Assembly (NCBI GenBank): GCA_963726265.1 | Contig: CAVSBQ010000002.1 | Location: 224,001-288,000, forward strand | Length of the DNA stretch: 64,000 nt | Direction: 5' to 3' | DNA from: Candidatus Aenigmatarchaeota archaeon | GTDB taxonomy: Archaea > Aenigmatarchaeota > Aenigmatarchaeia > QMZP01 > QMZT01 | In this document: positions 1 to 10,972 of the stretch, piece by piece | Numbering within the stretch: position 1 is the stretch's first letter | Layout of the letters: every line of letters starts with the position of its first letter | Made by a program: the position numbers and the translations under genes | Notes under the pieces: generated by a model | Seen by the model: only the letters and a program-made list of their open reading frames with translations | The model's database searches: none | Told to the model about the DNA's origin: nothing

Positions 1-398
1 TCGGTGACGTTGCCTTCTTCGTCCTTGAGCAGGTAGCGCGCCTTCAGGACCTTTATCGTGTTGACGGGAAGCTTCAATTCGTCGCGCACGCCGAGCATTT
101 CCTTCGCCTTTCTCGACTCCTCGCGCTCCTTCCTGTAGATTATGTACGCTTTCGCGGTCGCCGCATGGCCGTTCTCTATCAGGACCTTCTCCACGATGTC
201 CTGTATCTGCTCGACGGTCGGGATTTCCTTGTCGAACTTCTCCTCGACCAGCTGGACCACTTTCTCGGCCAAGCTTTTAGCGAGCCCGAGATCCTCGCCT
301 CCGACCGATTTCGCGGCCTTGAAGATGGCGCTGACTATCTTTTCAGTGTTGAAATCGACGACTCTTCCGTCCCTTTTCTTCACCTTGCTGACCGTCAT
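1..398 (-). CDS. nrdJ: Ribonucleotide reductase, ATP-cone N-terminus, probably class II (B12-dependent); runs off window start
   Basis: Manual translation gives MTVSKVKKRDGRVVDFNTEKIVSAIFKAA...VEQIQDIVEKVLIENGHAATAKAYIIYR (ATP cone), then VLKARYLLKDEEGNV, typical of class II RNR. Start overlaps the nrdR stop. Confidence 0.8.
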   Translation of the reverse strand, partial: MTVSKVKKRDGRVVDFNTEKIVSAIFKAAKSVGGEDLGLAKSLAEKVVQLVEEKFDKEIPTVEQIQDIVEKVLIENGHAATAKAYIIYRKEREESRKAKEMLGVRDELKLPVNTIKVLKARYLLKDEEGNVT

Positions 399-856
399 GC
401 TTTCCCCCCTTTGCCGCTCAGCTTCCTGAGCTCTTCCTGGAAGCTCTCGATGTCCTCGAACTCGCGGTAGACGGAAGCGAAGCGGATGTAGGCGACTTTG
501 TCGGCCTTCTTCAGCTTTTTCATCACAAGCTCGCCTATCCTCTTGCTCGGTATCTCGATGCTGTCCTCCCCGCGCAACTCGGCTTCGATTTCTTCCACCA
601 TCTTTTCTATGGCTTCGTTCGTGATGGGCCTCTTCTCGCAGGAACGGATGATGCCCTTCTTCACCTTGTCCCTGTCGAATCGCTCTCTCCGCCCGTCTTT
701 CTTCACGACGATAAGCTCCGCCGATTCCACCCTCTCGTATGTGGTGAAGCGCTTGCCGCATTTCAGGCATTCCCTTCGTCGCCACACTGACTTCTCGTCA
801 GAGCTTCGCTTGTCTATGACCTTCATCTCCTCGCTCGAGCAGTAGGGGCAGCGCAT
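395..856 (-). CDS. nrdR: Transcriptional repressor NrdR
   Basis: MRCPYC...RRRECLKCGKRFTTYE zinc ribbon, ATP cone (VVKKDGRRERFDRDK) and DKVAYIRFASVYREF signature. Confidence 0.95.
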   Translation of the reverse strand: MRCPYCSSEEMKVIDKRSSDEKSVWRRRECLKCGKRFTTYERVESAELIVVKKDGRRERFDRDKVKKGIIRSCEKRPITNEAIEKMVEEIEAELRGEDSIEIPSKRIGELVMKKLKKADKVAYIRFASVYREFEDIESFQEELRKLSGKGGKA

Positions 857-936
857 TTTTCCACCATTCACTCCTGTCCGGCCCTTTTCATGGCCTTTTT
901 ACAAGAGTTTTTACTACCGTTTGCTACCGAAAAAAA

Positions 937-1001
937 TCCCAATATGTTGGGCTTCGGAAGTTTAAAACACCAATATATTGTAGTCATGCATCCTTTATAA
1001 A
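937..1001 (-). promoter_or_regulatory. Two tandem NrdR boxes plus TATA box of the nrdR-nrdJ operon
   Basis: TCCCAATATGTTGGGC (937-952) and CACCAATATATTGTAG (968-983), cores 31 bp apart; TTTATAAA at 994-1001. Confidence 0.8.
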
Positions 1002-1097
1002 CATTTCGTTCCTGCAAAATATATTTTATGTTTTGAGATTTTTCCGGGCGGCCGGCGGCCAGGAAAATTATTTTAAAAACGTGGATAATGTATTACC

Positions 1098-2130
1098 ATG
1101 TCCAAAGTTTACTTCTTCCCCGCGGCGCGCAAAGAGGATATGGAGAAGGCGCTGGAAAGGCTCTACGAAAAGATCTCCGGCAGTTTCGACGTCCGAGGAA
1201 AGCGAATCGCGATAAAAATGCATTTCGGCGAGAAGGACAACACCACCCATCTCGATCCCGCCTTCGCCAGAAAGATATGCGAGCTCGTGCGAAGCCGCGG
1301 CGGGACGCCAGAGCTTGTCGAATGCAACACGCTTTATCGCGGCGAACGCCTGCACACGAACGAACACCTCGCGCTCGCTAAGGCGCACGGCTTCGACTTC
1401 GCGCCCGTCGTGATATGCGACGACAAAAACAGGGAATGGCAAATCCCCGTCCGCGGCAAACATTTCAGGAAAGTCAGGGTCGGCGCGCGTCTTAAGGACT
1501 ACAAAATGATGATAGCCGTGACGCATTGCAAGGGTCATGTTGCGGCGGGGTATGGCGGCGCGCTCAAGAACGTGGGCATGGGTTTGGGAAGCCGCGGCGG
1601 GAAACTGGAAATGCACGCCAAGGTAAAGCCCATATTCAAACAAGACAAGTGCAAGGCGTGCGGAGCGTGCGTCAAGCGCATGCCCTGCGGACGCGATTGC
1701 CATGGAGAAATACGCGGTCATGGACTCTGCCAAATGCATAGGCTGCGCGACCTGCGTCGCAGTCTGCCCGTACGGCGCGGTCGAAATTCCGTGGTTCAAC
1801 ACGACCTCGCAGGAAATCCAGGAGCGCATCGTCGAATACGCCCGCGGCGTCACCAGCAAAATCAAAACCATCTATTTCAACTTCCTGCTGAACATCACGC
1901 CCCACTGCGACTGCGTCGCGGACTCTGGCAGGCCGCTGCTCAAGGACATAGGCATTCTTGCATCGGAAGACGTCGTCGCGCTGGAGCAGGCCTCCCTGGA
2001 CATGATAAAGGGGAGAGCAGGCCGCGACGTCTTCATGGAAAGCCACAAGATCGACGTCTCCGTCCAGCCCGCTTACGCGGAGGCGATGGGCATGGGCGAG
2101 AGGCGGTATGAAATAGTGAAGCTTGACTAG
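1098..2130 (+). CDS. DUF362 family Fe-S protein with 2x[4Fe-4S] ferredoxin domain (frameshift near 1675)
   Basis: IAIKMHFGE, ECNTLY, HCKGH..GYGGALKNVGMG; CKACGACV and CIGCATCVAVCP; NITPHCDC continues in a second frame. Confidence 0.85.
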
Positions 2131-2184
2131 CTCGCCTATGCCGGCACAGCGGCCATTTTTAAAATTAATTATTACTCTTTAATT

Positions 2185-3366
2185 ATGAAACCACGACTAT
2201 TGATTGTTTATAAGCCCTCAATAATCACATACCCATTACTGGAAGAAAAACTTTTAGAGCTGCTCAGTCCTGTAGGAAATTTTATTGCTAGACGAAAATG
2301 GTATTCAATTCCTGAAGAACGGGTTAAGGAACTTTATACTGAACATATGAATAAGCCGTTTTTTGCACCTTTGTGTAATCTACTTTTAGGAAGACCCATA
2401 ACTACTCACGTATTTGAATCTAAGGGAGATGAAGATGAATCTTGGGTAAATTACGTCAGAACCGAGCTGATAGGGCACACAAATCCCCAGCTTTCAAGAA
2501 AAGGTACGTTTAGATATTATGTACATAAATTGACAGGAGAATCTTTGGAAAAAGCGGGCTCGGAAAGGAGATCTATTGACAACGGTGTTCATTGTTCTGA
2601 TTCCATTAAAAGCGGGCAAAGAGAATGCGCTATTTTTTATTGGGATTATATTCTTGATAACTCCAAAATATTATACTCGAATATCTCATTAATGGATGGG
2701 TCTCTTGCAAAAGATTTTGCAAAAAATGGGAGGGGTGTTTTCTTCGAAGAAAGGTTAGAATATTGTTTAAGAAAAAATAAACTTCTAAAAAAAGATGAAT
2801 TATTTGTTAAGTATGAGGAGTTACCTGTACCTGATAAAAATGGTGGATTTAGTTATGGTTGGAAACAGAGAGGTGCTGAAACTTTTACAGCAGGAGGTAG
2901 AGTAAGAAGTAGAAAGGGAGAAGACATTAATATTATAGATTTTGTTGCTAAAGCTTGTATCAATCTTCTTCCCGAAAAAAGAATCACTGAATGGCTTAAA
3001 AGAGGAGAAATTTTATCCACAGAGGGTGTTAAAACACCTAAATTATATTATCGTGAAAAAGGAGCTTATTATGAACAATATCTTAAATTTTCAGCCGAGG
3101 AAGTTCTAAGTAAAGCCGAGCCGATAAAAAGAGAAAAGCTCATAAGACAAATTGCAAGAATTGCTGGAGTTATAGATCGCAAATTTCTGTACCCTCAAGA
3201 TTTTATTGGTGACTTAAGAAGTGATGGTGAGGACATATTTTTTACTGATTTTGGTGAAGATTTAGGAGGTGCTGGTGAAGGTAAACACACAATTGGAAAA
3301 GATACGTTATTTAGCTATTTCAGAGGCAAGGATTTAGATTTATCATTAAAAGAATATGAGAATTAA
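2185..3366 (+). CDS. Nucleoside-diphosphate-kinase-like domain fused to a protein-kinase-like (RIO/APH/Kdo-type) domain
   Basis: N-half: YKP, LYTEH..KPFF, IGHTNP..GTFR, NGVHCSDS..SGQRE (NDK catalytic His). C-half: FVAK, GVKTPKLY, DFIGDLR, IFFTDFG. Confidence 0.7.
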   Translation: MKPRLLIVYKPSIITYPLLEEKLLELLSPVGNFIARRKWYSIPEERVKELYTEHMNKPFFAPLCNLLLGRPITTHVFESKGDEDESWVNYVRTELIGHTNPQLSRKGTFRYYVHKLTGESLEKAGSERRSIDNGVHCSDSIKSGQRECAIFYWDYILDNSKILYSNISLMDGSLAKDFAKNGRGVFFEERLEYCLRKNKLLKKDELFVKYEELPVPDKNGGFSYGWKQRGAETFTAGGRVRSRKGEDINIIDFVAKACINLLPEKRITEWLKRGEILSTEGVKTPKLYYREKGAYYEQYLKFSAEEVLSKAEPIKREKLIRQIARIAGVIDRKFLYPQDFIGDLRSDGEDIFFTDFGEDLGGAGEGKHTIGKDTLFSYFRGKDLDLSLKEYEN

Positions 3367-3415
3367 TTACTTAATAGATAGTAATATTTATAAAACTTCA
3401 ATTTCAACTAACAAT

Positions 3416-4423
3416 ATGAAACTAAGATCGGCCATTATAGGATTAGGTCATCAAGCAATAGAAGATCATATACCTGGTTTGAAAGATTCTCAACTTGCCA
3501 AATTGATCGCTATTTGCGATGTTGATGAGAACAAATTAAAGGAATGGCAAGATAAATTGGGTGTAAAAGGCTACAAATATCATCAAGATTTATTTAATGC
3601 TGAAAAATTGGATTTTGTTATTGCGGCTTTGCCGCATGACGAATACAGGAGTGTTATAGAAGAGGCCAGCAAAAGGCATTTGCACATTTTGAAAGAAAAG
3701 CCATTTGCCAGAAACTTGGATGAAGCTTTTTATTTCAAAAAACTTTGTGATGAGAATGACATACATTTAACAACAACCTTACAACGAAGATTCAATCCTA
3801 TATACAACACATTTTTCCAATTGAAGGATCAAATCGGAAAACCTTTCTTTGTGGATGCGAAATATACACTTTTTGTTGAAGCGCCGCATGAAGGATGGAG
3901 AGGTAAAAGAGATGAAGCGGGTGGCGGTGCCATAATAGATATGGGATACCACATGATTGACATGATTGTCTGGTATTTTGGCCTTCCAAATAATATACAT
4001 GCAGAATTCTCATCAAAGGCAAAACCCGAAGAAACTTATGATGCAGAAGATACAGCAGTTGTTTTACTTTCTTATGATGATGGTTTACACGGTTCATTGA
4101 CATTGTCAAGATATTATCCTCCAAAAACGGAAAGGATAAAGGTCATTGGAGATAACGGCATAATTGAAGTTGAAAGAGGCAGTATAAAGAGATTTAAAAG
4201 TGATGGTGAATTGGCAGAATCTTTGGTGAGAGAACATTCATGGCCAGTAGCAGCAACAAATCAAATTGATTATTTTTGCAGAGTAATAAAGGGAGAAAGA
4301 GAAAATATTGGAACTCCAGAGTATCATTTACAGCATGTAAGTTTTGTTGATGCTTGTTATAAATCAAAAAAAGAAGGCAAATATATAAATCCGAGGGAGT
4401 TGCTAGCTCGACATGAAAAGTAA
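3416..4423 (+). CDS. Gfo/Idh/MocA family NAD-dependent oxidoreductase (Pur10-like candidate)
   Basis: IIGLGHQA Rossmann motif, HILKEKPFA, QRRFNP, GGGAIIDMGYHMID; TTTATAAA about 22 nt upstream of ATG 3416. Confidence 0.9.
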   Translation: MKLRSAIIGLGHQAIEDHIPGLKDSQLAKLIAICDVDENKLKEWQDKLGVKGYKYHQDLFNAEKLDFVIAALPHDEYRSVIEEASKRHLHILKEKPFARNLDEAFYFKKLCDENDIHLTTTLQRRFNPIYNTFFQLKDQIGKPFFVDAKYTLFVEAPHEGWRGKRDEAGGGAIIDMGYHMIDMIVWYFGLPNNIHAEFSSKAKPEETYDAEDTAVVLLSYDDGLHGSLTLSRYYPPKTERIKVIGDNGIIEVERGSIKRFKSDGELAESLVREHSWPVAATNQIDYFCRVIKGERENIGTPEYHLQHVSFVDACYKSKKEGKYINPRELLARHEK

Positions 4424-5663
4424 GTTAGCTATACATGGCGGTGAAAGGGTTGTAAATATTGATGGACCACATTATGTATGGCCTGTGATTGGTGATAAAA
4501 CAAGAAATGCCGTTTTAAATCAGCTTTATGAGAGTATATCAATTTACAATAGATCCGGAATTATAGAAAGGTTAGAAAACAGACTTTCAGAATACTATGG
4601 GAAAAAACATGCTTTATTAACTAATTCTGGTACTTCTGCAATCCACTCCATGTTCGCAGGGAGTGGTTTGAACGAAGGAGATGAAGTTATTGTCCCAGCT
4701 TACACGTTCTACGCAAGCGCAACACCTTTATTTTTCACAGGTTCTATTCCAGTTCTGGCAGATTGCAGAAAAGATGGAAATATAGACCCTAGATATGTCG
4801 AAAGCAAAATAAGCAAAAACACAAAGGGAATCGCCGTTACACATATGTGGGGCTTACCATGTGATATGGAATCGATAGAGAAGTTAGCTAGAAAATTCAA
4901 TCTTATGCTTTTTGAAGATGCTTCTCATGCTCACGGAGCCAAATACAGAGGGAGGAAAATAGGGACATTCGGGAATGCTTCTGCATTTAGTTTGCAAGCC
5001 CAAAAGATTTTGACTGGTGGTGAAGGCGGGATTTTGTTGACAGATAATGATGAAATTTTTTATAGAGCATTGCTTCTAGGCCATTATAATAAAAGATGTA
5101 AACAGGAAATACCTAAAGATCATCCTCTTTATAAATTCGCAATAACAGGCATGGGATTGAAATTTAGAATACATCCCATCGCAGCAGCCATTGCCGATGA
5201 GCAATTAGATAATCTTGATGATATTTTACAGAAAAAAAGAGAGACTGCGGAGAAAATGATTAAAGTATTTGGTAATTTTCCTGGAATCGGTGTGCCTCAA
5301 GTACCTGATGGTGTGGAACCAAGCTGGTATGCTTTTCTCATGCAATACAAACCTGAAGAATTAAAAGGACTTTCTGTTGAAAAATTTTATGAAGCTTTGA
5401 AAGCTGAAGGTTGCGATGAATTAGACAGACCTGGTTCTACTTGCCCTCTTAATTATCATCCTTTGTTCCAAAATCCTGAAATTTTATTTCCAAAATACAA
5501 AGGAAAGGTAAATTATAGAAAGGGGGATTTCCCAGTTGCGGAGGAATTTCATGAAAATTCTTTAAAGTTACCAGTTTGGCATGATCCTAGAGATGAAAAG
5601 GTTTTAGATTTATATATCAAAGCATTTGAGAAAGTGATAGAAAGGAGTGAGGAGCTTTTGTAA
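4413..5663 (+). CDS. DegT/DnrJ/EryC1/StrS PLP aminotransferase (Pur4-like candidate)
   Basis: NSGTSA, GDEVIVPAYTF, THMWG, EDASHAHGA, FSLQAQKILTGGEGG (PLP lysine). Confidence 0.93.
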   Translation: MKSKLAIHGGERVVNIDGPHYVWPVIGDKTRNAVLNQLYESISIYNRSGIIERLENRLSEYYGKKHALLTNSGTSAIHSMFAGSGLNEGDEVIVPAYTFYASATPLFFTGSIPVLADCRKDGNIDPRYVESKISKNTKGIAVTHMWGLPCDMESIEKLARKFNLMLFEDASHAHGAKYRGRKIGTFGNASAFSLQAQKILTGGEGGILLTDNDEIFYRALLLGHYNKRCKQEIPKDHPLYKFAITGMGLKFRIHPIAAAIADEQLDNLDDILQKKRETAEKMIKVFGNFPGIGVPQVPDGVEPSWYAFLMQYKPEELKGLSVEKFYEALKAEGCDELDRPGSTCPLNYHPLFQNPEILFPKYKGKVNYRKGDFPVAEEFHENSLKLPVWHDPRDEKVLDLYIKAFEKVIERSEELL

Positions 5664-6113
5664 ATGAAACGGACTTTCTATAATACTCTGGTTAGTGAAG
5701 CCCAAAAAATAGGAATTAAAAGATACGTAGTTGGTGCCGTAATAAGAAAAAATTCTGAAATTTTGCTATTAGAAAGACCAAAAAATGAATTTATGGGAGG
5801 AATTTACGAATTGCCCAGCGGTAAGGTAGAGATAGGAGAGTCCCTTGATGCGGCTCTACGTAGGGAAGTTGAGGAAGAAACAAGTCTCCAAATTCATAAA
5901 ATACAAAAGTATTTAGGTCATTTCGATTATGATTCAAAAAAAGGTGACAGAACACGACAATTTAACTTTTCTGTCACAGTCAAAAAACCAATGGAAATCA
6001 GATTGCAAGAGCATGTTGATTATGCTTGGGTTAATAACGATGCATTACACGATCATCCTGTTACTGATAACGTAAAACAAATTTTAAGTTCATTCTGGGA
6101 GACAAATGGATAG
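5664..6113 (+). CDS. NUDIX hydrolase (Pur7-like candidate)
   Basis: Nudix box PSGKVEIGESLDAALRREVEEETSL; starts immediately after the DegT stop. Confidence 0.92.
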   Translation: MKRTFYNTLVSEAQKIGIKRYVVGAVIRKNSEILLLERPKNEFMGGIYELPSGKVEIGESLDAALRREVEEETSLQIHKIQKYLGHFDYDSKKGDRTRQFNFSVTVKKPMEIRLQEHVDYAWVNNDALHDHPVTDNVKQILSSFWETNG

Positions 6114-6210
6114 AAAAGATCATTTGTTAACCTTTGAAGAACAAGATGCCCTCGGTAAGTCTGAATTATTAGATAGGGTCCATATTGTATTTGGTAATAA
6201 AAAACTATAG
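6106..6210 (+). pseudogene. Truncated P-loop nucleoside monophosphate kinase (thymidylate-kinase-like) remnant
   Basis: MDRKDHLLTFEEQDALGKSELLDRV..., resembling the Tmk N-terminus (ITFEGxDGxGKS); overlaps the NUDIX stop; only 34 aa. Confidence 0.4.
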
Positions 6211-6276
6211 AGGGGGGCTACTGCAGAAATTAGCGATATGCTTACTAAAATATTCTTTTTATTATAGTAATTAAAA

Positions 6277-6894
6277 GTGGATATTATGAATTTAGATAAG
6301 AAAATCGTCGATGAAATAATAGAATACGTTAAAAATATTTACTCCAAATTAGAGTTAACACATGACATAAATCATATAGAAAGAGTTGCGAATTTAGCTA
6401 TTTTTTTAGCCGAAAGGGAAGGTGCTAATGTTGATATTGTGAAAGCTTCGGCCTGGTTGCATGACATAGGATACTCAGGTTTGACTAAAAAGGAAATGGT
6501 AGAAAAAGATCATGCAAATTTATCGATAAAAACAGCACAAGGTATTTTGATAAATAGAGGATTGGATAAAGATATTGTAGAATCAATTTGTAAGTGTATT
6601 CTTTTGCATGATAGTTCAAGAATTAAAATCGACAGTTCCATAGAAGCTAAATGTCTTCACGACGCTGATAAGCTTGATTGTGTTGGTGTGCGAGGAATGC
6701 TGAGACTTTTTGCATGGAATCTGACTATCGAACCAATGAATTGTAGTATTTCTGAATATATGAAACATTTGAAGAAAGGTGTATTAACAAAGGAGAAAGT
6801 TTTGATTACTAAAACCGCAAAAGAGCTCGCCAATAAATGGAATAAAAAGTTGTTAGAATTCTTTGATGCATATCAAGATGAAATAAATTTTTAA
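6277..6894 (+). CDS. HD-domain phosphohydrolase
   Basis: THDINHIERV, AWLHDIG, DHA, LHD, LHDADKLD. Confidence 0.9.
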   Translation: MDIMNLDKKIVDEIIEYVKNIYSKLELTHDINHIERVANLAIFLAEREGANVDIVKASAWLHDIGYSGLTKKEMVEKDHANLSIKTAQGILINRGLDKDIVESICKCILLHDSSRIKIDSSIEAKCLHDADKLDCVGVRGMLRLFAWNLTIEPMNCSISEYMKHLKKGVLTKEKVLITKTAKELANKWNKKLLEFFDAYQDEINF

Positions 6895-6968
6895 AGAAAG
6901 GATAAAATATAACGGCGTGATATATTTATAAACCCCTCCGCCAATAATTCAATCCGCTTAAACATACC

Positions 6969-7334
6969 ATGATTACAGGTGATTATGTGAAACCGTTATG
7001 CGAATACATGATAAATGAGATGCTTCCAGGGTTTCGAGCGCTCGTCGCGAAGAAGCTGATGGAAGACCATGGCCTTTCCCAGACCGAGGTCGCGGAGCTG
7101 CTCGACACGACGCAGCCGGCGATTTCGCAATACAGGCGCCAGCTGCGCGGGAAGAAGACTTCTGTTTTTATGAAGAACCACGAGCTGCTCGACTTCCTCG
7201 ACAGCGATGGCGCAAAGGATTGCGACGGGCAAGATAAGGCCGGACCAGACCGGCCTCGAGTTCTGCAGGGTGTGCAGGTTCATGCGCGACAGGGACATCG
7301 TTTCGGGCGTTTCCATGTGCTGAGCGTTTTCTAA
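6969..7334 (+). CDS. Archaeal HTH transcriptional regulator (COG2522-like; frameshift near 7204)
   Basis: PLCE...LPGFRALVAKKL...GLSQTEVAELLDTTQPAISQY; C-terminal CRVC in the alternative frame. Confidence 0.75.
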   Translation: MITGDYVKPLCEYMINEMLPGFRALVAKKLMEDHGLSQTEVAELLDTTQPAISQYRRQLRGKKTSVFMKNHELLDFLDSDGAKDCDGQDKAGPDRPRVLQGVQVHARQGHRFGRFHVLSVF

Positions 7335-7378
7335 AAACCTTCCAAGTTTTTTTAAGCGGCGAACTACAAAGGAATATT

Positions 7379-7750
7379 ATGGACTACTGGGAAAAGAAAA
7401 TCGCGGCAGCTTCCATGGGAAACCCCGTCGACGTCCTGAAGAGGGACAAGGAGCTCTTCAAAAAGATGAGGCAGGAGATCGAGCAAACCAAGGAAAACAA
7501 CAGGAAGCTGCTCAAGAACAACGATAACCTCGTCAAGCTCGTGGAGCTGATGGAGGAGAAGATAAAGAACCTGACCGAGGACATGAAGAAGAATTACGTC
7601 TATTCGTTCGAGCACGGCGGCTGGGTCGAGAAAGGCGCGCTGGACCAGGGCAGGATAGAGCTCGCGCCTTCGCAGCTGAACATCGACTCCATAAACAACC
7701 AGCTGGCCGAAATCCTGAAGATGGTGGAAAGGCACAGGATGAAGGCGTGA
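7379..7750 (+). CDS. Hypothetical coiled-coil protein
   Basis: Host-like codon usage, heptad-rich. Confidence 0.6.
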   Translation: MDYWEKKIAAASMGNPVDVLKRDKELFKKMRQEIEQTKENNRKLLKNNDNLVKLVELMEEKIKNLTEDMKKNYVYSFEHGGWVEKGALDQGRIELAPSQLNIDSINNQLAEILKMVERHRMKA

Positions 7751-7808
7751 AAGCGTCTAAGGCTTAAATAGAAATGTAATGCTATTATAAAATAAGCGAG
7801 GTGTCTTG

Positions 7809-8234
7809 ATGGTGAAGAAATCGATGCAGAAGGTGCATGACGGGTTGGAAGGCGTTCTGAACACTCTCAGCGAGGATGTTACCAAGGCGTTGGACATAAA
7901 GGAAGAGAGGAAACTTCTTGAAAAGAAGGTGAGGCAGCTCAAGGATGAGGAGATCCAGCTCAGCGAAGTGGTCAGCCACCTGAAGAAAACGAGGGATAAA
8001 ATGCAGGACGAGCTGAAGGCAAAGACGGTGGAAGAAGAGGAGCTCAAATCGAAGGTCCTTACGCTCAAGGAAGACAAGGCGGGCATGGAATCCGAGAAGC
8101 TCACCCTCAACCAGCAGATAAAGAACCTCAAGAAGGAAAAGGAGCTTTCGCAGAAAGCGCTCGAGAAGACGAACGACCTGCTCGTTTCCCTGAAGCATCA
8201 CATTTCAGAATTCGATGAAGAAATCAGAGGGTAA
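7809..8234 (+). CDS. Hypothetical coiled-coil protein
   Basis: E/K-rich heptad repeats; GAGGTG ribosome-binding site upstream. Confidence 0.65.
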   Translation: MVKKSMQKVHDGLEGVLNTLSEDVTKALDIKEERKLLEKKVRQLKDEEIQLSEVVSHLKKTRDKMQDELKAKTVEEEELKSKVLTLKEDKAGMESEKLTLNQQIKNLKKEKELSQKALEKTNDLLVSLKHHISEFDEEIRG

Positions 8235-8459
8235 GCGGAAGCCGTCTTTGGCAACCGCTCTGGATAAGGGCGGGTTCTAGTTATTTTTATTTTTGTTAAT
8301 ACCATTCATAATTGTGGGACTCGGCGACAAGGAAGCTCCCGGCAATGCGCAGGCTCATGAATTTTTTCTGAAAGTTTAATCGTACATCATGCCATCAAGC
8401 CTTTTAAACGCCATCAAGGCCGCTTAAAAAACTAATTTTCATCATATTAAGGTGGTCAC

Positions 8460-10362
8460 ATGACCCTCACCAGAAGGGAGTTCATGGAGCTTTCCGCCGC
8501 GGCTGCATCCCTCTATATTTTGAACCCGGCAAAGCTTATCGGAAAAGCCGGCGAAAACGCGGGCGGATGGACATCCTCTTCCGAAAAGGAATGGAGCTGG
8601 AGCGGGCATTTCAGCGAATGGATGGAGGGCAAGGAATTCAAATTCCCCTATGACTCTGAGCTTTTCTACTACCCCGAAAGAATCGTGGCCATGAGAGGCA
8701 ACCTTGCCAAAAGGCTTCTGTACCAGTCTGACGATTTGAAGCATGACCACGGGCAGCATATAATGAGACGCGGGGGCAATCTGGAAAACGTCTACTATGC
8801 GGACCTCAGCATACGAACGAAGAAAAAGCTGGACCTGCAGGTGCGCTTTGGCGACAGGCCGGACAGGCTGCCGGACCGCGAATCCCGCAGCCTCTCCTCC
8901 AACTGCATCGACCTCAAAGGCGTCGAAGGGGACGTACACGTAACGCTGCCGCTGGAGTTCATAGAAAACGACAGCGGCAGGGTCTTCTATCAGATTTTAT
9001 ACAAAGACGGCGGCGCCTACAGGCCCATCTCTCCTGTGCGCGCATCCAAAAACCTGAAATACAGCAAGAATCCGGATTTATACTTATTTGCCGACGACCA
9101 CAAGTTTGATGGCCGGTTCAACGAAGCGCTGCCGCTCCGCCGGGGCGTATCCAACATCATCAGCGGCCTGGAGGCGGAGTATTTTTACGATTTCCTGCAA
9201 AAATCCATCGAAAGAGTCGACTGGCTGAATAGCGCTGATATGGGTCTCAGGTACAACGTGGAAATGCTGAAGGACACATATCATCAAGCGCAGACATTCG
9301 CCTTCATGATAAAAGAAGGCATCCATCCTGACGCGATATTTGACGGCAACGATGGCCTGGGCATCCATCGCTACAGGCTCAAGCGCCAGGGCCTTATCGA
9401 AAACGATAACCAGATCCCTTCAGAAAAAGAATGGCTTGAAATTGCGCGGAAAATTTGGGAGCGCGAAAGGAGATATTACGGTCTTTTTACGCCTCTGGTT
9501 TCGGTGTATAAAGCTGAAGGGAATCACGACGGCGGCGGCATATACCACAACCCGGCGCATAAAGCAGCGGCAAAGGCGAGGATGGAGATGTGGACGCAGC
9601 CGGGTGAATTCGAAGGCTGCTCCCCGGAACAAAACTACTATGTAGTGCCGCTGGCGGGCGGGAAAGTGGAATTTCACGTCCTCGACATAGTCAAGTACTC
9701 GGCTTCATACGACAAAAAAAGCCCCAACAGGCCGGAGAATTTCAGGTTAGGCGACGGGCAGACGGCATGGCATGAAAGGAAGTCGGAAGAAAGCCAGGCC
9801 CTGATGAATTTCATTGTGATGCACCATCTTGCAGGCGGGTGGCCCAAAAATCCGGAAGGCACGAAATGGGGAGGCTACGGCAGGGGCCATGCTTTACACG
9901 CGCGAACACTACGAATATTACTGCAGGAATTTCGGAAAATATTTCAACCCGCCGCTTGACATCGAGCAAATACAGCAGTGGAAGATAACACAGAAAGCCC
10001 TGGACAACAATTTCAGGGGCATCATATCCAACCATGACCACTTGCAATATCTTGAAAACAATCGGGTGCAACAGGAGCGGCAAAGAAGTGTTTGGGATGA
10101 TCCCCGGAACCATGAACCAAGTCGGGGAAGAACCTGCATGGTCAATTGATCAGGACTGCTGGGTGAATGAATACGGCCCCTGGAAAAAGGGAATGTTCCT
10201 GAGCGCCCCTGTGATAAGCAGGATGAGAATAAGGCCGGGTTCGGACTCGATTGAAATACAAGCCATATGCAGCTCAACCCCGCCGGACCAATTTTCCAAT
10301 CTGAGATACATTGTAAAATGGGACGGAGAGTGGGAGAGGTCCTCAGGCAATACCTGTACTGA
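8460..10362 (+). CDS. Tat-signal secreted calcineurin-like metallophosphoesterase (several frameshifts after 9880)
   Basis: MTLTRREFMELSAAAASL twin-arginine signal; motifs FADDH, DGND, GNHD, MHH and NHDH (second frame). Confidence 0.65.
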
Positions 10363-10407: not shown

Positions 10408-10972
10408 ATGGCATTTCTCGTCCTCGGCCTCACTGGGAGGCGCGGCTGCGGCAAGGACACGATGGCCGATTATCTAGAAAGCGAGATACGGCTTCCGCGT
10501 CCTGACCTACACCAACGACGTGCTCGGCCCCGTCCTGAAGGAGCGCGGCCTCGCCGTCACGCGCGAAAACCTCATAGACCTCGCGCTCGAGATGCGCAGG
10601 GATTGCGGCAGGGACGTCCTGACCGAGCTCATCTGCAGGAGGATCGAACGCAGCGGCTTCTGGGCGATAAGCGGGGTGCGCTACCCGGAGGAAGTCGGCT
10701 ATTTCAAAAAGGCATTCGGCGACGCTTTCAGGCTGGTCCATGTCGCCTGCTGCACGAAAAAACGATATGCGCGCGTGCGGAAACGCGGCACCAAGGGCGA
10801 AGGCCGCATGAGCCTGAAGAAGTTCATGGAAATCGAGGGCAAGGAAACGGAAAAAATCATGAACGAGACGATAGGCCTCGCCGACTTCTCGGTCAGCAAC
10901 GACGGGACTATAAGGCAGTTCGAGACGGCGATAGATGGGCTGGCCAGGAAAATCGGCATCCCGAAAAGATAA
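10408..10972 (+). CDS. P-loop nucleotide kinase (dephospho-CoA-kinase/COG0237-like; frameshift near 10485)
   Basis: GLTGRRGCGKDT; ISGVRYPEE; RYARVRKRG; ADFSVSNDG. Confidence 0.8.

Follow-up and report, generated by a model that had tools for sequence, protein, structure and literature searches.

Does an inserted island in a small archaeal genome encode the making of amino-deoxy nucleotides, a chemistry known from bacterial nucleoside antibiotics, or does it belong to amino-sugar metabolism? The question is raised by a stretch of 64,000 nucleotides of a Candidatus Aenigmatarchaeota archaeon (assembly GCA_963726265.1, contig CAVSBQ010000002.1, positions 224,001 to 288,000; hereafter the window), in which an AT-rich island carries coupled genes for a predicted Gfo/Idh/MocA-family dehydrogenase (Gfo), a DegT-family aminotransferase (DegT) and a NUDIX hydrolase, together with genes for a kinase fusion protein and an HD-family phosphohydrolase. 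The source genome of this symbiotic-type DPANN archaeon comprises 1,132,268 bases in 4 contigs and is 88% complete. Judging from the gene relations described below, we regard it as somewhat more probable than otherwise that the cassette makes an amino-deoxy nucleotide, and that its state of phosphorylation is governed by the accompanying kinases and hydrolases.

Both the chemistry and the core of three genes have already been described from bacteria. The adgA-E genes of Photorhabdus luminescens, located in a low-GC island, are described as encoding a major facilitator superfamily (MFS) transporter and homologues of pur10, pur4, pur7 and pur3, and expression of adgB-E in Escherichia coli was reported to yield 3'-amino-3'-deoxyguanosine (PMC9239236). 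In the puromycin-type core, according to the published account, a nicotinamide adenine dinucleotide (NAD)-dependent dehydrogenase acts on a nucleoside triphosphate (NTP), Pur4/CstF is the aminotransferase, and the Nudix enzyme Pur7 releases nucleoside monophosphate (NMP) and pyrophosphate; puromycin, A201A and cystocin elaborate the same core further (PMC11641026).

The island and its open reading frames

The guanine-plus-cytosine (GC) content is about 0.33 in the island and about 0.53 in the flanks (0.31-0.39 over positions 2251-7000 and 0.46-0.59 on either side). In a BLAST comparison of positions 300-9000 with 12 relatives, the empty site was found in the same-genus genome G004, where the left flank runs up to C6:1892 and the right one sets in at C6:1917, with 24 bp between them; homology to this site is lost just past the stop codon of the DUF362 gene (at about 2130) and comes back at about 6901. 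Judged from its GC contrast and from the adjoining flanks in G004, the island is a foreign insertion that was acquired horizontally. Searches at its borders detected neither a tRNA nor an Rfam family, an integrase or a long terminal repeat; the only shared sequence is the 9-nt ATTTTTAAA, present close to each end and nothing unusual for AT-rich DNA. Contigs of sequencing run X1 span the island and cross its right junction (6861-7251), and short low-depth contigs identical to parts of 5377-6823 came from runs X2-X4 of three other studies, so the sequence is maintained in nature. A protein identical to the Gfo encoded at 3356-4423 (P0005) is recorded on a contig of 4,858 bases, which is close to the island in size, and in that other assembly the island may have been assembled on its own.

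Five open reading frames (ORFs) lie in the island on the forward strand, all of them uninterrupted and each with its catalytic motifs kept (Table 1). The DegT and NUDIX ORFs abut, and the Gfo ORF as called overlaps that of DegT by 11 nt. Because homologues of Gfo begin at about residue 20 of the ORF, its start is probably M21 (window position 3416), and with this start a gap of about 49 nt, rather than an overlap, would follow the fusion gene. The first-pass annotation of this DNA, made from the letters and the ORFs, had described an AT-richer island with a TATA box of its own. The contrast in composition is real, and insertion relative to G004 can be added to it; the TATA-like box is present ahead of the first gene as a putative promoter, and the gene calls stand except for the overlap of the Gfo and fusion genes, which would disappear with the M21 start. 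It had also reported an NDK-kinase fusion, a remnant of an NMP kinase and an HD phosphohydrolase, each of which was recovered by the analyses given below, and the absence of glycosyltransferases, nucleotidyltransferases, epimerases and flippases, of which Pfam searches indeed returned no family among the five island proteins.

Conservation of the Gfo-DegT-NUDIX cassette

Another genome of the phylum, G361, carries on a 55,624-base contig a Gfo-DegT-NUDIX run with 61, 62 and 55% identity to the window proteins, followed by an intact thymidylate-kinase-like gene. Plasmid pSGZL of Streptomyces sp. 769 encodes a Gfo, an aminotransferase and a NUDIX protein in the same order (44, 48 and 48% identity), and on pKVP1 of S. 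viridifaciens the triad (55% identity over a truncated DegT and 46% for NUDIX) is accompanied by three more NUDIX genes, an ABC transporter and a phosphoribosyltransferase. A decayed copy, consisting of a DegT fragment and a NUDIX gene, is present on the NBC_00513 plasmid. The Streptomyces contexts add a divergent helix-turn-helix (HTH) regulator, the two regulators being dissimilar to each other, and the neighbourhood on pSGZL includes an alaS gene and a type I-E CRISPR-Cas locus. These comparisons support the view that the triad is a conserved cassette, and they uphold the coupling of the three genes that had been noticed in the window, where the ORFs are co-directional and overlap or abut in the order shared with G361 and pSGZL. 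In the archaeal loci (the window and G361) all accessory genes appear by their domains to belong to nucleotide-handling families, much as had been suggested for the window.

The Gfo family counts 587 proteins at E <= 1e-20 in a large protein collection. It is tight, with 51-77% identity among the 119 non-self matches listed (120 with the window's own), and the named members among these matches come from Woesearchaeota, Aenigmatarchaeota and many actinomycetes. Within the phylum the distribution is rare, the Gfo being found at E <= 1e-60 in 2 of 371 genomes; a tblastn search of plasmids with the DegT returned 8 of 72,556 records at E <= 1e-70.

Some of the cassettes compared here are of the adg type. 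Plasmid pBMSBPS2 of Candidatus Pantoea carbekii (6,287 bp; L042) encodes only RepA and a Gfo, an aminotransferase, a NUDIX protein and a protein of the inositol-monophosphatase family, and plasmid pPstS2 of the Plautia stali symbiont (L045) has four genes in a row with the same sizes, the aminotransferase of which is 42% identical to the window DegT. The Pantoea Gfo family comprises 23 proteins at E <= 1e-10, including one of Photorhabdus laumondii, whose N-terminus MKLAIIGCG agrees in 8 of 9 residues with that encoded by the published adgB forward primer (PMC9239236); because of this match the Pantoea and Plautia cassettes serve here as stand-ins for adgB-E. As the cassette is the sole cargo of the 6.3-kb plasmid of P. 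carbekii, an amino-nucleoside is suggested to matter in the stink-bug symbiosis.

Grouping of the aminotransferase and the dehydrogenase

Besides its 62% identity to the G361 protein and 48% to that of Streptomyces sp. 769, the window DegT is 42% identical (331 bits) to the adg-type aminotransferase of the P. carbekii plasmid. Its scores against other aminotransferases are lower: 149-187 bits (28-33% identity) for DegTs of native DPANN sugar pairs, 161.7 for the best chain in the PDB (the second-best structure being 8GYH), 197 for PseC, the best NCBIfam family, and 123.2 and 84.4 for the kanosamine enzymes RifK and NtdA. In a tree of 21 rows, from which a 251-residue pKVP1 fragment and duplicate loci were left out and in which AdgC is represented by its cassette look-alike, the 7 DegTs of nucleoside-type clusters are split from 14 DPANN sugar-type DegTs with a support of 100/100. 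By sequence, the grouping of the window DegT with the adg-type (Pur4/AdgC-type) aminotransferases, away from the DegTs of native DPANN sugar pathways, is therefore supported.

A further DegT, 41% identical to that of the window, is encoded on a plasmid of Bacillus thuringiensis (NZ_CP126475.1, 1079-9826; L043) beside an oxidoreductase of the short-chain dehydrogenase/reductase (SDR) type. The same cluster also holds an MFS transporter, a 589-residue protein, a MazG-like protein, a paralogue of a class I tRNA ligase and a GNAT protein, and this gene content has the look of a nucleoside-type antibiotic cluster, so far undescribed, that includes genes of self-resistance.

The window Gfo shows a GLGHQA nucleotide-binding motif, EKP at residues 114-116 and D195/H199. 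A hidden Markov model built from 16 AdgB-like proteins scores it with 143.8 bits, the best of the families tried. The best NCBIfam families are iolG (93.9 bits) and the archaeal 3-dehydrogenase of uridine diphosphate N-acetylglucosamine (UDP-GlcNAc; NF040723, 86.9 bits), with family cut-offs of 355 and 450, and identity to the Gfo proteins of native DPANN sugar pairs is 24-30%. The best solved structures are 3q2i and 3q2k, which we take to be WlbA-type UDP-sugar 3-dehydrogenases. A tree of 42 rows was built from 10 of the 120 listed family matches, the window's own protein, those of G361 and pSGZL, AdgB-like proteins and 13 DPANN sugar-type Gfo proteins; the window family falls on the AdgB-like side of a split from the sugar-type proteins supported at 100/99. 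As far as such trees can tell, membership in the native sugar clades is excluded, and orthology to Pur10 would need stronger proof than they give.

Accessory genes: the kinase fusion, the kinase relic and the hydrolases

The first gene of the island encodes a fusion of two predicted kinase domains. Its N-terminal half, like nucleoside diphosphate kinase (NDK), matches the Pfam NDK family (PF00334) over residues 6-152 with 53.9 bits (cut-off 27), and stays below the equivalog level, scoring 55.9 bits against a cut-off of 155 with the NCBIfam NDK model. It keeps the YKP motif with K10 and the catalytic histidine, H136, in NGVHCSD, preceded by an insert of about 20 residues. A canonical NDK (150.8 bits) is encoded elsewhere in the genome, so the island NDK is an extra, specialised copy.

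The C-terminal half has no Pfam match, but it contains the motifs VAK (K256), RSDG (D347) and DFG (D355). In the AlphaFold model of the fusion, the predicted local distance difference test (pLDDT) has a mean of 66 and reaches 70-96 over residues 200-393. Fold comparison of this half by VIA-align returned MPH-E (7w15, Z 11.1), Rio1 (1zp9, 10.9), Bud32 (4ww5, 10.8) and APH(2'') (4dbx, 10.8); over residues of about 150-393 the Z values were 10.2-11.1 to 7w15, 1zp9, 4ww5, 4dbx and 4ej7, and 10.6-10.8 to APH(2'')/APH(3'). Among the 50 best rows 45 were kinases of the protein-kinase-like fold, the others being ranks 2, 28 and 30, which match the NDK-like N-terminus, and ranks 23 and 32. Foldseek with the whole model gave NDK structures only, and an Atlas search gave leads only, namely unnamed viral clusters and one RIO1-like cluster at 0.91. 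On the predicted model, the C-terminal half is of the protein-kinase-like fold (APH/MPH/RIO/Bud32), in line with the fusion seen at first.

The fusion is rare: 4 homologues of similar length were found among 5.8 billion proteins, and a profile search of genome contigs with the fusion alignment returned no locus. Of 13 metagenome loci matched by the fusion, one (L012) has a full-length copy, adjoining a NUDIX gene and a cytidylyltransferase-like gene, and the other 12 match the NDK-like part only; 23 ORFs from 4 of these 13 loci (L012, L014, L015 and L018) were annotated. When the C-terminal half was searched on its own, 450 of 1.84 billion representatives proved related to it at E <= 1e-3. Of 24 that were scanned, NDK is the fusion partner in 8, adenylate kinase in 1 and CYTH in 1, and 14 have no Pfam family. 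As its relatives are repeatedly fused to nucleotide kinases, this half probably is a nucleoside or nucleotide kinase. Multi-domain relatives include P0150 with NDK (994 residues), P0153 with two stretches of adenylate kinase (1,533 residues) and P0292 with CYTH (440 residues), and most of the stand-alone ones (200-240 residues) have no Pfam family. The fusion represents a family that has no Pfam model, and may constitute a novel type of nucleoside-analogue kinase.

In three of the annotated metagenome loci (L014, L015 and L018) a tandem NDK-like pair stands beside phosphoenolpyruvate carboxykinase (PEPCK), an arrangement unrelated to the island. The conserved sediment metagenome block (L013-L024, e.g., L015 7334-11058) consists of PEPCK, two tandem divergent NDK-like genes of about 250 codons and a cupin, and in L015 the genes of acetyl-CoA synthetase and pyruvate carboxylase subunit B follow downstream. 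It is unusual for NDK paralogues to be grouped with anaplerotic enzymes in this way.

For the NUDIX protein, the best NCBIfam families are the NTP pyrophosphohydrolases PRK08999, NudG and MutT, and the best PDB match is MutT (4v14); identity is 55% to the protein of the G361 cassette and 46-48% to those of Streptomyces, and relatives at E <= 1e-15 occur in 4 of 371 genomes of the phylum. The next ORF is a relic: by tblastn, positions 6106-6180 correspond to the first 25 residues of the G361 kinase with 56% identity (E 9e-5), which makes the NMP-kinase remnant a real one. The relic occupies, relative to NUDIX, the place of the intact 219-residue kinase gene of G361, and the ancestral cassette was Gfo-DegT-NUDIX-NMP kinase.

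The HD protein has its best PDB matches in 5dqv/5dqw (E 1e-13) and YedJ (3gw7, E 7e-8), and is a relative rather than an equivalog of PRK10119 (49.9 bits against an NCBIfam cut-off of 286), its Pfam HD domain and YpgQ-type relatives agreeing with the first-pass call. No homologue of it was found in the other cassettes examined. The structure 5DQW is that of Bacillus subtilis YpgQ, a nucleotide pyrophosphohydrolase, and PenF, an HD enzyme with a YpgQ-like architecture, is described as the NMP phosphatase/nucleotidase of the arabinosyl adenine (Ara-A) pathway (PMC11592144). Since PenF is an HD nucleotidase of a nucleoside-antibiotic pathway, an HD protein in place of Pur3, as had been proposed for the island, would have, by analogy, a precedent in that description.

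Proposed pathway and competing explanations

The pathway set out here, in its substrate, regiochemistry, order of steps, end product and role, is a proposal read from gene content, insertion, synteny, and relations of sequence and fold. In this operon-like cassette, Gfo would oxidise the 3'-OH of an NTP with NAD+ (the 2'-OH being an alternative), the MutT-type NUDIX protein would strip pyrophosphate to leave the monophosphate, and DegT would aminate the keto group to give an amino-deoxy-NMP, the placing of NUDIX before DegT being taken from the published adg proposal (PMC9239236). An NMP kinase, intact in G361 and a relic in the window, would raise the NMP to the diphosphate (NDP); as the gene is a relic in the window, a host kinase or the kinase-like domain may take over this step. 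The divergent NDK-like domain would then convert NDP to NTP, the protein-kinase-like domain may phosphorylate the nucleoside or a ring substituent, and the YpgQ-type HD protein and NUDIX may take the phosphates off again, either to release the product or to protect the producer. In the archaeal versions the core is joined to kinases and an exporter is lacking, and in the bacterial ones it comes with a Pur3-type phosphatase and an exporter and a nucleoside is secreted, which suggests that the archaeal product is phosphorylated and intracellular. It had been supposed that the kinases supply the substrate; re-phosphorylation of the product by them seems the likelier function.

Several observations weigh against an amino-deoxy nucleotide as the product. 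The Gfo is only 26% identical to the AdgB-like protein of Pantoea and 31% (132 bits) to that of Photorhabdus, and in the tree its family forms a clade of its own apart from the AdgB-like one; both trees have a single sugar-type subfamily as outgroup, and their ingroup rows were retrieved with the query proteins. For none of the members of this Gfo family do we know of an enzymatic activity or a product. The NUDIX protein is, by its sequence relations, a generic member of its family: the 45% identity to the adg-type NUDIX covers an alignment of 66 residues only, and the proteins nearest to it in the phylum (63-64% identity) are encoded by stand-alone genes next to that of the DNA polymerase D (PolD) large subunit in G361 and G362. 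The DegT clade may not be nucleotide-only, because its Bacillus member is paired with an SDR enzyme of the epimerase/dehydratase type instead of a Gfo. With its NMP kinase reduced to a relic, the cassette has been remodelled and may be incomplete, and by Pfam the island holds neither a Pur3-type (inositol-monophosphatase family) phosphatase nor an exporter. In free form a 3'-amino-NTP would also be toxic to the polymerases of the producer itself, and the island has no evident regulator or immunity gene. Finally, the link to Pur10, Pur4 and Pur7 rests by analogy on the published homology of adgB-E (PMC9239236) rather than on the sequences of Streptomyces alboniger. The likeness to the puromycin core claimed at the outset accordingly holds for the conserved triad and the grouping of DegT, and is weakened for Gfo by its low identity and for NUDIX by its stand-alone relatives; in the phylogenies that had been called for, both DegT and Gfo do part from the native DPANN sugar clades, Gfo standing beside the AdgB-like proteins and not among them.

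The chief rival is an amino-sugar or aminocyclitol pathway, in which the substrate oxidised by Gfo and aminated by DegT would be an NDP-sugar, a sugar phosphate or inositol, as for UDP-GlcNAc3N, kanosamine or scyllo-inosamine, with NUDIX cleaving a sugar nucleotide and HD removing a phosphate. Gfo/DegT pairs are the standard module of sugar 3-amination and are native in relatives of this archaeon; moreover, the best curated matches of Gfo (iolG and the archaeal UDP-GlcNAc 3-dehydrogenase), its best structures (3q2i and 3q2k) and the SDR-paired DegT of the Bacillus plasmid all lean to sugars. The curated scores are, however, far under the cut-offs mentioned, both enzymes are split from the native DPANN sugar pairs (100/100 for DegT and 100/99 for Gfo), RifK and NtdA score far under the adg-type aminotransferase, the island is devoid of glycosyltransferase, nucleotidyltransferase, flippase and HAD phosphatase, and the partners, in the window and in G361, are NDK-like, NMP-kinase-like, MutT-like and YpgQ-like. 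We hold a sugar pathway to be unlikely for these reasons.

It is still less probable that the island makes a building block only, the core of a larger aminoacyl- or peptidyl-nucleoside, a cofactor or a signal, with other genes located elsewhere or in a partner organism. Puromycin, A201A and cystocin do elaborate the same core (PMC11641026), tRNA-ligase genes lie near related DegT clusters (alaS on pSGZL, the class I ligase on the Bacillus plasmid), and in L012 the NDK-kinase fusion stands next to NUDIX and a cytidylyltransferase-like gene. The insertion, in turn, is bounded and holds these genes alone, and the adg core by itself is reported to yield a finished bioactive product (PMC9239236). 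The large neighbours on the two plasmids (620 residues on pSGZL and 589 in Bacillus) are dissimilar, so this comparison gives no sign of a shared Pur6-like synthetase. An equally small chance is given to a decaying passenger, that is, a recent import which is unexpressed or whose pathway is incomplete in this host. The cutting down of the NMP-kinase gene to 34 codons, a GC content wholly unadjusted to the host, the presence of Gfo in only 2 of 371 phylum genomes and the decay of copies elsewhere (the NBC_00513 DegT fragment and the truncated or unannotated copy of pKVP1) would all fit it. Against it stand the five remaining ORFs, intact with their catalytic motifs, the identical island pieces in runs of three further studies, and the location of the apparent frameshifts in the native flanks and not in the island, at least one of them coinciding with a 1-nt difference in short reads.

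Possible role and significance

If the product is an amino-deoxy nucleotide, its use may be narrowed further, at a lower level of confidence. The archaeon could push a 3'-amino-3'-deoxy nucleotide back to the triphosphate within the cell by dedicated kinases, so as to act as a chain terminator against viruses or against the symbiont's host, with NUDIX and HD as the producer's safety valves; from the gene content we find this conceivable and, on the whole, rather unlikely. As part of the same doubtful reading, the phosphatase and the exporter might be replaced by the NMP kinase, by a divergent NDK that tolerates an altered 3' position and by the new kinase domain of protein-kinase-like fold.

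For the defence-island association raised earlier, no viral or defence-island link was found. No viral relatives were found in scans of viral contigs for the fusion and the Gfo family, nor by tblastn of Gfo against 50,697 phage records, and PHROGs returned generic aminotransferase, NUDIX, HD and thymidylate-kinase families only. In PADLOC-DB 2.0, the sole island match is that of NUDIX to the candidate model PDC-S07 (75.6 bits), a model which also matches every other MutT-like NUDIX protein tried (24.8-80.4 bits); Gfo, DegT and the fusion have no match there, and the G361 kinase has a weak one to VakA (31.9 bits). The patchy distribution, plasmid carriage and foreign composition would fit an accessory function in conflict, and identify none in particular.

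New relative to the bacterial systems are the archaeal host, the separate Gfo clade, the exchange of phosphatase and exporter for kinases, and the NDK/kinase-like fusion. No archaeal aminonucleoside cluster was found in the literature searched, and if the chemistry is as proposed, archaea would here have their first reported pathway of the aminonucleoside type. The Pur10/Pur4/Pur7 core would then be a mobile three-gene module that crosses domains, in DPANN archaea, on actinomycete plasmids and on small plasmids of insect symbionts, and the exchange of phosphatase and exporter for kinases sets up a contrast, open to testing, between a nucleoside antibiotic that is secreted and a nucleotide poison kept within the cell.

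Features of the island and neighbouring genes

Table 1. The island and its predicted features in the window (columns: feature, position, strand, description and basis)
AT-rich inserted island	2131..6900		About 4.77 kb; GC contrast and empty site in G004
TATA-like box TTTTTAAA	2156-2163	+	Read from the sequence; 22-29 nt ahead of the first ATG; putative promoter
Fusion protein, 393 aa	2185..3366	+	NDK-like domain, residues ~1-155; protein-kinase-like domain, residues ~186-393
Gfo/Idh/MocA NAD-dependent dehydrogenase (predicted)	3356..4423	+	Three GFO_IDH_MocA Pfam domains
DegT/DnrJ/EryC1-family pyridoxal phosphate-dependent aminotransferase (predicted)	4413..5663	+	Pfam DegT_DnrJ_EryC1, 253.6 bits; SLQAQK with Lys198, GEGG at 203
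MutT-type NUDIX hydrolase (predicted)	5664..6113	+	Pfam NUDIX, 62.8 bits, also NUDIX_4; Nudix box at residues 53-72, GKVEIGESLDAALRREVEEE
Thymidylate-kinase-like (NMP kinase) relic, 34 codons	6106..6210	+	Degraded P-loop, then stop
HD phosphohydrolase, YpgQ/YedJ type (predicted)	6277..6894	+	Pfam HD, 45.4 bits; H29, H61-D62, D128, further HD dyads

The site between the DUF362 and HTH genes, at which the island is located, differs in each congener examined, being empty in G004, filled with about 0.8 kb in G002 (L040, G002:C20:7000-10400) and with 2.66 kb in G003, where the insert (L039, G003:C9:49500-54700) consists of genes of native GC content, including one for a 597-residue protein. From these alignments the site seems to be a hotspot of gene gain and loss. 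Native GC-rich genes by the island have the appearance of being frameshifted relative to intact congeneric orthologues, namely those of a DUF362/ferredoxin protein (1098-2130), an HTH protein (6969-7334) and a PRK08356-type P-loop kinase (10408-10972). Within the HTH gene, one base at 7207 is missing from a short-read contig of run X1, so this break is probably an assembly indel rather than a sign of a pseudogene. The window also encodes, at 8460-9959, a native protein of 499 residues that has an N-terminus resembling a twin-arginine signal (MTLTRREFMELSAAAA) and no Pfam match. The NUDIX genes by PolD are divergently placed (2323-2832 of L074, G362:C59; L075, G361:C69), the copy of G361 being frameshifted in appearance.

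Comparison with known systems

Prokaryotic viperin loci often have nucleotide kinases in their neighbourhood. The island resembles them in the idea of nucleotide-modifying enzymes joined to NMP and NDP kinases that would deliver a chain-terminating NTP, and differs in having no radical S-adenosylmethionine viperin, in its other chemistry and in that no defence-island context was found for it. The native archaeal pairs of UDP-GlcNAc 3-dehydrogenase and aminotransferase in DPANN relatives share with the island the adjacency of Gfo and DegT genes, but their identity to the island proteins is low, they fall in separate clades (100/99 and 100/100) and have other partner genes. In comparison with the kanosamine pathways (NtdC/NtdA/NtdB and RifL/RifK/RifM), the island is without a HAD-type phosphatase, and its DegT is far from NtdA and RifK.

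With PenF of the pentostatin/Ara-A pathway the island would share an HD protein of YpgQ architecture in the making of a nucleoside analogue that involves a sugar-modified NMP, a likeness known via YpgQ rather than from an alignment with PenF as the enzyme is described (PMC11592144). With Pur10, Pur4, Pur7 and Pur3, and with their counterparts AtaP10, AtaP4, AtaP7 and AtaP3 of A201A and CstG, CstF, CstH and CstD of cystocin, it has in common the three enzyme families and the proposed logic; unlike the puromycin cluster, it is without genes of tailoring, coupling (Pur6) and resistance (Pac, Pur8). The adg-type clusters are similar in being low-GC islands with the order Gfo, DegT-type aminotransferase, NUDIX and phosphohydrolase. 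They differ in that the island Gfo belongs to another clade, an HD protein replaces the Pur3/inositol-monophosphatase protein and no MFS exporter lies in the island, which in turn adds the fusion of NDK-like and kinase-like domains and the relic NMP kinase, and resides in an archaeal host.

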